Source: Escherichia coli
GTDB taxonomy: Bacteria; Pseudomonadota; Gammaproteobacteria; Enterobacterales; Enterobacteriaceae
Assembly: GCF_041886205.1 (NCBI RefSeq)
Contig: NZ_CP169029.1
Direction: 5' to 3' (one strand)
DNA length: 64,000 bases
Of this stretch, positions 8,756 through 13,058 are shown piece after piece (position 1 is the first letter of the stretch; every line of letters begins with the position of its first letter). The position numbers were made by a program, and so were the translations under genes. A model generated the notes under the pieces. The model was not told the origin of the DNA, did not search any database, and saw only the letters and a list, made by a program, of their open reading frames with translations.

Positions 8756-10005
<1,250 letters not shown>

Positions 10006-10182
10006 TAAAGTAAGTAACTGGTTAATTTACATTCTGGTCGCGTGCGCAAATACGCTTTTCCTCACACAGTTGTCAAGTGTTACGTTTAGATAATTGCTAT
10101 CCGGAAAAGCATCTGCTATTTATAGCGGCCTCATTTTTCCCCCGAACATGGGGATCGATAGTGCGTGTTAAGGAGAAGCAAC

Positions 10183-10638
10183 ATGCAAGAAGGGCAAAAC
10201 CGTAAAACATCGTCCCTGAGTATTCTCGCCATCGCTGGGGTGGAACCATATCAGGAGAAGCCGGGCGAAGAGTATATGAATGAAGCCCAGCTGGCGCACT
10301 TCCGTCGTATTCTGGAAGCATGGCGTAATCAACTCAGGGATGAAGTCGATCGCACCGTTACACATATGCAGGATGAAGCAGCCAACTTCCCGGACCCGGT
10401 AGACCGTGCAGCCCAGGAAGAAGAGTTCAGCCTCGAACTGCGTAACCGCGATCGCGAGCGTAAGCTGATCAAAAAGATCGAGAAGACGCTGAAAAAAGTG
10501 GAAGACGAAGATTTCGGCTACTGCGAATCCTGCGGTGTTGAAATTGGTATTCGCCGTCTGGAAGCGCGCCCGACAGCCGATCTGTGCATCGACTGCAAAA
10601 CGCTGGCTGAAATTCGCGAAAAACAGATGGCTGGCTAA
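10183..10638 (+). CDS. dksA: RNA polymerase-binding transcription factor DksA
   Basis: ORF 10165..10638; start at ATG 10183 ([11 protein letters not shown]); C4 zinc finger [25 protein letters not shown]; 151 aa. Confidence 0.96.
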
Positions 10639-10666
10639 TTACAGCCGTTCCATCACGTTTACCACA

Positions 10667-10694
10667 GGCGGGAAATGCTCCCGCCTTATTTTTT
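10667..10694 (+). terminator. Rho-independent terminator of dksA (stem ggcggga/tcccgcc followed by TTATTTTTT)
   Basis: Hairpin plus T-run read from sequence immediately after dksA stop and before gluQ start. Confidence 0.8.
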
Positions 10695-10704
10695 GTTCAA
10701 AGAG

Positions 10705-11601
10705 ATGACAGACACACACTATATTGGCCGCTTCGCCCCCTCTCCTTCCGGCGAGCTTCATTTTGGTTCTCTGATTGCTGCGCTTGGCAGCTATTTGCAG
10801 GCTCGCGCCCGGCAAGGTCGCTGGCTGGTACGCATAGAAGATATCGACCCGCCTCGTGAAGTTCCCGGTGCCGCAGAAACTATCCTGCGCCAGCTGGAAC
10901 ATTACGGCCTGCACTGGGACGGCGATGTTCTCTGGCAATCGCAACGTCACCACGCCTATCGCGAAGCACTCGCCTGGTTACATGAGCAAGGACTAAGTTA
11001 TTACTGCACCTGCACGCGTGCGCGTATTCAAAGCATTGGTGGTATTTACGACGGTCATTGCCGGGAATTGCATCATGGACCAGATAACGCCGCAGTGCGT
11101 ATCCGCCAGCAGCATCCGGTCACCCAGTTTACTGACCAGCTGCGCGGCATTATTCACGCCGAAGAAAAACTGGCGAGGGAAGATTTTATTATTCATCGCC
11201 GTGATGGTTTGTTTGCCTATAACCTGGCGGTGGTGGTGGATGATCACTTCCAGGGCGTGAGCGAAATTGTCCGCGGGGCAGATTTGATCGAACCGACAGT
11301 GCGGCAAATCTCGCTGTACCAGCTTTTTGGCTGGCAAGTGCCAGATTACATTCATCTGCCGCTGGCGCTTAATCCACAAGGCGCTAAACTTTCCAAGCAG
11401 AATCATGCGCCTGCGTTGCCGAAAGGCGATCCACGCCCGGTACTAATCGCGGCACTTCAATTTCTGGGGCAGCAGGCAGAAGCACACTGGCAGGATTTCA
11501 GCGTCGAGCAAATCCTTCAGTCAGCCGTCAAAAACTGGACGCTGACCGCCGTGCCTGAGTCGGCAATTGTAAATTCAACATTCTCAAATGCGTCATGCTG
11601 A
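10705..11601 (+). CDS. gluQ: Glutamyl-Q tRNA(Asp) synthetase (truncated GluRS paralog lacking anticodon-binding domain)
   Basis: ORF 10675..11601; start refined to ATG 10705 ([22 protein letters not shown], class I HxGx-type motif); 298 aa. Confidence 0.92.
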
Positions 11602-11660
11602 GCTATGATTAGCCGCTATTTTTTTGTCCTGAATGATGTTTGACACTACCGAGGTGTACT

Positions 11661-13058
11661 ATTTTTACCCGAGTCGCTAATTTTTGCCGCAAGGTGCTAA
11701 GCCGCGAGGAAAGCGAGGCTGAACAGGCAGTCGCCCGTCCACAGGTGACGGTGATCCCGCGTGAGCAGCATGCTATTTCCCGCAAAGATATCAGTGAAAA
11801 TGCCCTGAAGGTAATGTACAGGCTCAATAAAGCGGGATACGAAGCCTGGCTGGTTGGCGGCGGCGTGCGCGACCTGTTACTTGGCAAAAAGCCGAAAGAT
11901 TTTGACGTAACCACTAACGCCACGCCTGAGCAGGTGCGCAAACTGTTCCGTAACTGCCGCCTGGTGGGTCGCCGTTTCCGTCTGGCTCATGTGATGTTTG
12001 GCCCGGAGATTATCGAAGTTGCAACCTTCCGTGGACACCACGAAGGTAACGTCAGCGACCGCACGACCTCCCAACGCGGGCAAAACGGCATGTTGCTGCG
12101 CGACAACATTTTCGGCTCCATCGAAGAAGACGCCCAGCGCCGCGATTTCACTATCAACAGCCTGTATTACAGCGTAGCGGATTTTACCGTCCGTGATTAC
12201 GTTGGCGGCATGAAGGATCTGAAGGACGGCGTTATCCGTCTGATTGGTAACCCGGAAACGCGCTACCGTGAAGATCCGGTACGTATGCTGCGCGCGGTAC
12301 GTTTTGCCGCCAAATTGGGTATGCGCATCAGCCCGGAAACCGCAGAACCGATCCCTCGCCTCGCTACCCTGCTGAACGATATCCCACCGGCACGCCTGTT
12401 TGAAGAATCGCTTAAACTGCTACAAGCGGGCTACGGTTACGAAACCTATAAGCTGTTGTGTGAATATCATCTGTTCCAGCCGCTGTTCCCGACCATTACC
12501 CGCTACTTCACGGAAAATGGCGACAGCCCGATGGAGCGGATCATTGAACAGGTGCTGAAGAATACCGATACGCGTATCCATAACGATATGCGCGTGAACC
12601 CGGCGTTCCTGTTTGCCGCCATGTTCTGGTACCCACTGCTGGAGACGGCACAGAAGATCGCCCAGGAAAGCGGCCTGACCTATCACGACGCTTTCGCGCT
12701 GGCGATGAACGACGTGCTGGACGAAGCCTGCCGTTCACTGGCAATCCCGAAACGTCTAACGACGTTAACCCGCGATATCTGGCAGTTGCAGTTGCGTATG
12801 TCCCGTCGTCAGGGTAAACGCGCATGGAAACTACTGGAGCATCCTAAGTTCCGTGCGGCTTATGACCTGTTGGCCTTGCGAGCTGAAGTTGAACGTAACG
12901 CTGAACTACAGCGTCTGGTGAAATGGTGGGGTGAGTTCCAGGTTTCCGCGCCACCAGATCAAAAAGGGATGCTTAACGAGTTGGATGAAGAGCCGTCACC
13001 GCGTCGCCGTACTCGTCGTCCACGCAAACGCGCACCGCGTCGTGAGGGTACCGCATGA
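11661..13058 (+). CDS. pcnB: Poly(A) polymerase I
   Basis: ORF 11640..13058; recalled N-terminus [13 protein letters not shown] aligns to an ATT codon at 11661-11663 (non-canonical start); 465 aa; basic C-terminus. Confidence 0.93.

Follow-up and report, generated by a model that had tools for sequence, protein, structure and literature searches.

A leaky intrinsic terminator between dksA and gluQ in Escherichia coli, set against published transcript maps and 80 related loci

We consider it very probable that the terminator of dksA, which is Rho-independent, doubles as a partial terminator within a dksA-gluQ(-pcnB) transcription unit, and that the minority of transcripts reading through it are the only detected source of gluQ mRNA. 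In the model that we propose, RNA polymerase coming from the dksA promoters would transcribe dksA, and roughly 75-90% of the complexes would be released at 10666-10694. The minority that read through would supply the gluQ message, to be translated from the ATG at 10705, 10 nt beyond the U-tract, behind a U-rich leader with no Shine-Dalgarno (SD) sequence. The output of gluQ would be held low at the levels of both transcription and translation, and the result would be a roughly fixed, low ratio of GluQ-RS to DksA, tied to dksA promoter activity. The leaky dksA terminator before gluQ is already known, from Caballero et al. 2012 and two corroborating K-12 transcriptome datasets; the element here is no different in kind, and our additions are a comparison across 80 species and the application of the K-12 transcriptome numbers to the junction. 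The arrangement is thus real but ordinary, and its biology was published in 2012.

The window analysed here is a stretch of 64,000 nucleotides of E. coli DNA, and the gene cluster at the feature is sfsA-dksA-gluQ(yadB/gluQRS)-pcnB (Table 1). Positions 10000-11700 are 100% identical to E. coli strain 6EVA and are matched in 5424 of 5426 complete E. coli genomes, of which 5092 carry the 101-nt junction with an identity of at least 99%. As the 66-nt spacer (10639-10704) does not differ from K-12, K-12 transcript maps transfer directly to the window, with the conversion K-12 position = 160112 - (window position - 10675). GluQ matches PDB 1NZJ (E = 2e-202).

Table 1. Positions of the features at the dksA-gluQ junction, numbered from the first letter of the window
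Feature	Position	Strand	Basis or remark
Proximal dksA transcription start, K-12 160656	10131	+	SMRT-Cappable-seq Supplementary Data 1 and 2, mapped via identical K-12 sequence
dksA CDS (151 aa)	10183..10638	+	ORF list, RefSeq annotation; strong Shine-Dalgarno AAGGAG
dksA stop TAA	10636-10638	+	Sequence
Spacer from dksA stop to hairpin, 27 nt	10639..10665	+	Poorly conserved between genera (alignment)
Terminator stem-loop AGGCGGGA/AATGC/TCCCGCCT	10666..10686	+	Sequence, folding, alignment
In-frame ATG in hairpin loop, start of 308-aa frame	10675..10677	+	Very likely unused
U-tract UAUUUUUU	10687..10694	+	7 T in 8 nt, one A interruption near stem
gluQ leader GTTCAAAGAG, 10 nt, without functional Shine-Dalgarno	10695..10704	+	Sequence, anti-SD duplex energies
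gluQ (gluQRS/yadB) CDS, 298 aa, glutamyl-queuosine tRNA(Asp) synthetase	10705..11601	+	RefSeq PGAP, PDB 1NZJ, start conserved across species

The terminator itself is readily seen in the sequence. Its hairpin has 8 pairs, 6 of them G-C, around a 5-nt loop (-14.5 kcal/mol), and TATTTTTTG stands directly 3' of it, the T-run ending at 10694; the T-tract TATTTTTT at 10687-10694 adjoins the 3' side of the stem, as the U-tract of an intrinsic terminator should. Hairpin and U-tract follow the dksA stop and precede the gluQ ATG at 10705. A first-pass annotation of this DNA had placed the terminator at 10667-10694 with 11 bp separating it from the gluQ ATG: the terminator is present and the gap is indeed short, but the 5' end was one base off, the closing A-U pair having been left out (the true start is 10666), and the gap counts 10 nt, 10695-10704. 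The 80-nt junction folds at -18.5 kcal/mol (z = -2.6 against shuffles), the stem pair probabilities are 0.86-1.0 in every upstream context tried (partition-function folding with six 5' extents), and a consensus scanner returned the junction as the strongest terminator-like match in the 4-kb region. Comparable sites, defined for the shuffle test as a perfect stem of 7 bp or more, of which 5 or more are G-C, and then at least 6 T in 8, occur at 4 loci on both strands of the 64-kb window, as opposed to 0.2 +/- 0.4 in 30 dinucleotide shuffles. The junction terminator exceeds chance, such sites being about 20 times rarer in shuffles.

Published K-12 datasets place RNA 3' ends in vivo inside the U-tract, at 10690-10691. 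By Term-seq (Adams et al. 2021, PMC7815308), a 3' end maps to K-12 160097 on the minus strand, which is window 10690, with 3,097,035 reads in LB at OD 0.4; it was seen in other conditions too, and its intrinsic-terminator score is 7.47, where a value >3 predicts intrinsic termination. DirectRNA-seq coverage in 800-nt windows falls from 250 upstream to 62 downstream of this end in untreated cells, and from 250 to 72 with bicyclomycin (BCM), giving a Rho score of 1.16 that was flagged 'No' (PMC7815308); bicyclomycin did not relieve termination, and the dksA terminator, identical in sequence here, is Rho-independent.

Full-length primary transcripts from SMRT-Cappable-seq (Yan et al. 2018, PMC6131387) likewise end at a termination site at 160096, window 10691. 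In M9, 18 of the 24 reads from the transcription start site (TSS) at 160656 end there and 3 pass through, as against 17 and 1 of the 30 reads from TSS 161058; in rich medium the corresponding figures are 27 and 9 of 49 for TSS 160656, and 10 and 3 of 20 for TSS 161078 (PMC6131387). The operon variants b0145, b0145|b0144 and b0145|b0144|b0143, i.e. dksA, dksA-gluQ and dksA-gluQ-pcnB, all start from dksA promoters (PMC6131387), and the proximal start in Table 1 is the origin of both dksA-only and dksA-gluQ(-pcnB) transcripts in K-12. Once pooled, the read-through amounts to 10% in M9 as compared with 24% in rich medium, a difference that is not significant at these small SMRT read counts (Fisher p = 0.10). 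From these two fractions, the coverage ratio of 62/250 and the reporter effect of roughly 10-fold described below, we arrive at a termination efficiency of about 75-90%. Neither dksA nor gluQ is listed in the TERMITe supplements, and no coordinate of the junction turned up in those of Cappable-seq 2016, in a text that possibly lacks the TSS table.

The reporter evidence comes from Shigella flexneri, where Caballero et al. 2012 (BMC Microbiol 12:226, PMC3542578) detected a dksA-gluQ co-transcript by RT-PCR. Removal of the intergenic region gave about 10-fold higher lacZ activity than a fusion containing it, and mutations disrupting the stem raised downstream reporter activity >2-fold (PMC3542578). 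The dksA-gluQ-rs operon of S. flexneri and E. coli described in that work is the same locus as ours, with the same hairpin, the same two candidate AUGs, the same dependence on the dksA promoters and the same read-through (PMC3542578). Indeed, the checks that the first-pass annotation had proposed, namely RT-PCR across the junction, terminator-reporter fusions and mutation of the stem, are essentially the experiments of Caballero 2012, and their outcomes were favourable. Its claim of a functional intrinsic terminator directly upstream of gluQ is borne out by that study, by Term-seq and by SMRT-Cappable-seq, and its claim that gluQ is expressed via read-through from dksA agrees with the RT-PCR co-transcript, the lacZ fusions and the SMRT read-through transcripts.

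How widely is this arrangement shared? A DksA query yielded 80 species loci from Enterobacterales, Vibrionaceae and Shewanella, and gluQ stands directly downstream of dksA in 74 of them, across a short spacer (median 70 nt). A strict T-tract rule misses terminators in many species, and a relaxed hairpin search with direct inspection was used instead. A spacer hairpin of -12 kcal/mol or stronger is found in 72 of the 74 (median -18.8 kcal/mol), and it beats all 10 shuffles in 91% of the 66 spacers tested. The distance from the dksA stop to the start of the hairpin has a median of 18 nt in the 57 species whose spacers are short, and in 54 of these the hairpin ends no more than 25 nt from the gluQ start. 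Its sequence differs between families, from GGCGGGAG in Enterobacteriaceae and GCAGTGAGGC in Erwinia and Pantoea to ACGGCGCC in Photorhabdus and Xenorhabdus, GGGAGC in Vibrio and Photobacterium, and CGCGGGGCC in Shewanella, so that position and structure are what is conserved.

At closer range, an alignment of 26 Enterobacteriaceae gives the spacer a mean column identity of 46% with many indels, around an invariant GGCGGG/CCCGCC core. Three pairs at the base of the stem co-vary, with 10 cells changed on both sides, and the observed values were reached by 3 to 5 of 500 shuffles. The U-tract, on the other hand, is much less conserved. Escherichia, Shewanella and some species of Vibrio and Photobacterium have a strong one; across Enterobacteriaceae the tract is T-rich with interruptions, and Erwinia, Pantoea, Photorhabdus and Xenorhabdus have practically none. 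The spacer hairpin is nearly universal, and the U-tract is the variable part. In genera without a clear U-tract the hairpin may not act as a canonical intrinsic terminator, and termination strength probably differs between lineages.

Is the junction a regulated attenuator, or a fixed leak? The first-pass annotation had called the arrangement attenuation-like. That description holds only loosely, for partial termination; the search for an antiterminator fold, a leader peptide or an Rfam riboswitch found none. No competing antiterminator fold emerged from partition-function folding with six 5' extents or from constrained folding. When the 3' arm is withheld, the 5' arm pairs best with 6 nt that lie about 110 nt upstream, within translated dksA, and the resulting fold is weaker by 12.6 kcal/mol than that containing the terminator. 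An Rfam scan of 9900-11800 at E <= 1 returned only a chance snoRNA match (19 bits against a gathering score of 50), and the riboswitch server run by the authors of the S. flexneri study also found nothing (PMC3542578). The ORF list holds no separate small ORF or leader peptide in the 66-nt spacer, and the alignment of 26 Enterobacteriaceae no conserved spacer sequence outside the stem. Moreover, with a gap of 27 nt, ribosomes that terminate at the end of dksA should not reach the hairpin.

The case for true regulation, in which growth phase or stress would switch read-through via a trans-acting factor and gluQ would be induced independently of the dksA promoters, begins with the stationary-phase RT-PCR of Caballero et al., where the intergenic amplicon rose 20-fold and those of dksA and gluQ changed only 1.3-fold (PMC3542578). 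That assay is an end-point, semi-quantitative one (PMC3542578), and its result is internally odd, as the gluQ amplicon itself stayed level. The core of the stem is invariant in sequence and not merely in structure across 26 species, which could point to recognition by a factor; however, an invariant core of 6 G-C pairs is also expected from plain selection on stem stability. The higher read-through in rich medium than in M9 leans the same way, against which stands its lack of significance. The 2012 authors left the possibility open (PMC3542578), and our literature search found no later paper on regulated read-through at dksA-gluQ. Considering also that the stem pairs with probabilities near 1.0 in all contexts, we regard a regulated attenuator as unlikely.

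There is a slim chance that a factor recognising the invariant GGCGGG/CCCGCC stem, or RNA polymerase modified by DksA/ppGpp, tunes the leak in stationary phase or osmotic stress. Were this so, the stringent response would regulate glutamyl-queuosine modification of tRNA(Asp) independently of dksA mRNA levels, with a second control, at translation, coming from the conserved U-rich leader that lacks an SD. The junction is best described as an internal terminator with a constitutive leak, not a proven attenuator, and this leak as probably fixed.

Such an element would be in familiar company, as the rplL-rpoB attenuator is another internal partial terminator that sets a gene ratio within its operon. 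With that system, and with rpsU-dnaG and recA-recX, the dksA-gluQ junction shares an intrinsic terminator between co-transcribed genes, a downstream gene without a detected promoter, about 10-25% read-through and poor downstream translation signals. It differs from all three in the genes concerned, in its very short spacer, and in that the U-tract of the terminator forms most of the gluQ 5' leader. Terminator T1 of rpsU-dnaG-rpoD and the terminator of recA-recX, which likewise set gene ratios by partial termination within an operon, are cited by Caballero et al., who also mention the unusual SD of dnaG (PMC3542578).

A different comparison is offered by the trp and his leaders and the preQ1 riboswitches, where a terminator hairpin directly upstream also lowers transcription of a coding sequence; gluQ, moreover, belongs to the queuosine modification pathway, in which riboswitches are common. 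Unlike these, the dksA-gluQ junction comes without leader peptide, antiterminator, aptamer or Rfam match, and the ORF upstream of its hairpin is no leader, as in classical attenuators, but the full-size, highly expressed dksA, which ends 27 nt short of the hairpin. Such an arrangement would explain how a tRNA-modifying enzyme of low abundance can be kept in a set proportion to an abundant stringent-response factor with no detected promoter of its own, and it provides a clean natural example of a terminator U-tract doubling as the leader of the next gene.

Could gluQ nonetheless have its own weak or conditional promoter, be it sigma-24-dependent or in the 3' half of dksA, such that read-through is not its sole source? 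The first-pass annotation had ruled out an independent promoter for want of room in 11 bp. Its conclusion is in keeping with the data, as no such promoter was detected and a promoterless fusion gave baseline activity; its reasoning is invalid, because dksA itself could house a promoter. The window offers a parallel in the pcnB promoter (TTCTCA-17-TATGAT, 11581-11609), which extends over the 3' end of gluQ and agrees with the mapped starts at 11615/11617, SMRT-Cappable-seq having pcnB-folK transcripts begin at 159170/159172 (PMC6131387). The same method recorded read-through and, at low sequencing depth, no gluQ-initiated class among the K-12 operons (PMC6131387).

The lacZ fusion without the dksA promoters (pVCDT) had baseline activity (PMC3542578), a result to be read with the caveat that this construct retains the terminator, by which a weak dksA-internal promoter would be damped about 10-fold and could be missed. 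RegulonDB lists a predicted sigma-24 promoter for gluQ without experimental support (mentioned in PMC3542578), and by the filtering rule of Adams et al. a dRNA-seq TSS should be present 21-200 nt upstream of the 3' end (PMC7815308). From further afield, deletion of dksA in Acinetobacter baumannii, a different organism, left gluQ expression unchanged. A separate promoter seems to exist in some strains of P. syringae (PMC3542578). On the other side, our sigma-70 scan returned a single site near the junction and a total number of sites equal to the shuffle expectation; that lone site (10696-10725, 9/12 matches) was rejected as a gluQ promoter, as its transcripts would begin within gluQ. Transcripts from any dksA-internal promoter would themselves have the terminator to pass, so that the core model stands regardless, and we hold a separate gluQ promoter to be quite improbable.

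Another reading would make the hairpin mainly a stabiliser of the mRNA 3' end or a processing stop, the mapped 3' ends then arising from exonuclease trimming of longer transcripts. The conservation of the hairpin in many genera that lack a U-tract speaks for such a role, and the Term-seq end lies only 4 nt past the stem, nearer than typical release sites, which suggests some trimming. In E. coli, however, 7 of the 8 nt after the hairpin are T, and the hairpin carries the high terminator score quoted above, with a 4-fold fall in downstream RNA coverage (PMC7815308); its removal or mutation lifts downstream reporter transcription (PMC3542578), and full-length primary transcripts end at the site (PMC6131387). 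We therefore find it very unlikely that stabilisation or processing is the main role of the hairpin.

Beyond the terminator, partial termination could be compounded by poor translation of what is let through. An SD motif (GGAG, GAGG or AGGA) occurs in only 2 of 74 gluQ leaders, leaving 72 of the 74 species without one, and the median anti-SD duplex energy of gluQ leaders is +0.4 kcal/mol, compared with -2.4 for random 20-mers of the window and -9.2 for dksA. Caballero 2012 had also remarked that gluQ has no obvious SD (PMC3542578); the SD-less, often pyrimidine-rich leader is a conserved property of gluQ, which extends that single-species remark. It fits a low expression enforced at both transcription and translation, and the leader may well serve to limit the latter. 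Part of the SD-less effect reflects the T-rich composition that follows a terminator. We also considered a hairpin between the U-tract and AAAGAGAU (10700-10707, reaching into the start codon), which can pair weakly in the read-through RNA, as a translational switch; this candidate was rejected, being too weak (-2.9 kcal/mol) and poorly conserved across genera.

There remains the question of where gluQ begins, given that the first-pass annotation had the terminator overlapped by an extended gluQ frame. The frame is indeed open from the ATG in the hairpin loop, giving a 308-aa ORF (10675-11601) in place of the 298-aa gluQ from 10705-10707, and K-12 NC_000913.3 annotates it in this form, whilst PGAP on the identical strain 6EVA starts at 10705 with 298 aa. 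N-terminal sequencing of GluQ, however, read TDTQYIGRFAP, which sets the start at the second Met and the protein at 298 aa (PMC3542578), and the chains of PDB 1NZJ and 4A91 (YadB/GluQ-RS) are also of 298 aa and begin with MTDTQ at that same Met. In the alignment of 26 Enterobacteriaceae, every species has an ATG at the position of 10705, and E. coli and E. albertii alone have the one in the loop; the loop ATG is absent from E. fergusonii (PMC3542578). In more distant genera the chosen gluQ start mostly falls within a few codons of the position equivalent to 10705, and 8 of 74 species have some other in-frame upstream ATG. In addition, the distance from hairpin to ATG changes between genera by non-multiples of three, so that this stretch is non-coding.

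That the 308-aa frame is the real gluQ product, with the hairpin inside its coding sequence, is thus scarcely credible and already largely refuted: beyond the open frame and the reference annotation it has to its credit an SD-like GGCGGGA upstream of 10675 (anti-SD duplex -6.3 kcal/mol), and both this and the loop ATG are buried in a -14.5 kcal/mol stem, whilst the crystallised, active enzyme is the 298-aa form. The extended frame is very likely an annotation artefact and not a translated extension, and correcting it has some practical value, as the K-12 record still carries the 308-aa gluQ starting in the terminator loop; it is because of this extended ORF that the Term-seq 3' end was classed as internal to gluQ ('ORF-internal', PMC7815308). 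Within the 298-aa protein, the window strain carries His in place of Gln at residue 5 (10719 C vs G).

Across 26 species of Enterobacteriaceae, the six-pair core of the dksA terminator stem is sequence-invariant in our spacer alignment (A1), and in the same species divergence is close to saturation in the stem base, loop and U-tract as well as in the remaining spacer. Outside this family, unrelated hairpin sequences occupy the equivalent position in other families. Between the window and K-12, identity is 100% in both dksA and the spacer (10183-10704), and all 44 differences over 10183-11601 fall within gluQ, from 10719 onward (~5% divergence). Such an abrupt rise in divergence, located precisely where gluQ begins, could mark a recombination boundary; alternatively, it could reflect a very strong constraint on dksA that includes its synonymous sites.

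Coordinates of sequence features around dksA, gluQ and pcnB
Feature	Window position	Sequence	Location
Terminator stem core	10667-10672 and 10680-10685	GGCGGG/CCCGCC	A1 columns 94-99 and 108-113
Promoter-like site	11581-11609	TTCTCA-17-TATGAT	overlaps gluQ 3' end
Weak hairpin and the sequence that follows it	within 10113-10135	CTGCTATTTATAGCGG, then CCTCATTTTT	sfsA-dksA spacer

A further Term-seq 3' end is ORF-internal in dksA, at K-12 160387, i.e. window 10400 (Adams et al., PMC7815308). The filtering rule of the same study implies that a dRNA-seq TSS precedes the 3' end at the terminator by 21-200 nt; this would place it at ~10490-10669, either within the 3' half of dksA or in the part of the spacer that precedes the hairpin.

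Considering translation, a Shine-Dalgarno motif is missing from the gluQ leaders of 72 of 74 species, when the 20 nt upstream of the gluQ starts (10685-10704 in the window) are scored across our set of dksA loci (L002-L081). The median anti-SD duplex energy of these leaders is +0.4 kcal/mol, against -2.4 kcal/mol for random 20-mers; as pairing is weaker than that of random sequence, SD-like sequences appear to be depleted, beyond mere absence. No gluQ was found within 2.5 kb downstream of dksA in six of the 80 loci (L035, L053, L060, L062, L067 and L071), which include Providencia vermicola DSM 17385, Morganella psychrotolerans, insect-symbiont Pantoea and one Enterobacterales MAG. One of the six, L035, ends at a contig end, and gluQ is present in another P. 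vermicola genome (L055).

Downstream, the promoter-like site at the gluQ-pcnB junction agrees with TSSs mapped by SMRT-Cappable-seq at K-12 159170/159172, i.e. window 11617/11615 (Yan et al., PMC6131387). The same data contain a dksA-gluQ-pcnB read-through transcript, and an effective terminator is therefore absent downstream of gluQ. The annotated start codon of pcnB, at 11661, is ATT instead of ATG.

Upstream of dksA, an 'orphan' Term-seq 3' end at K-12 160652 (window 10135; PMC7815308) is separated by just 4 nt from the proximal TSS of dksA identified by SMRT-Cappable-seq at K-12 160656 (window 10131; PMC6131387), so that upstream transcripts, whether from sfsA or a distal promoter, have a 3' end at almost the same position as the start site of dksA.
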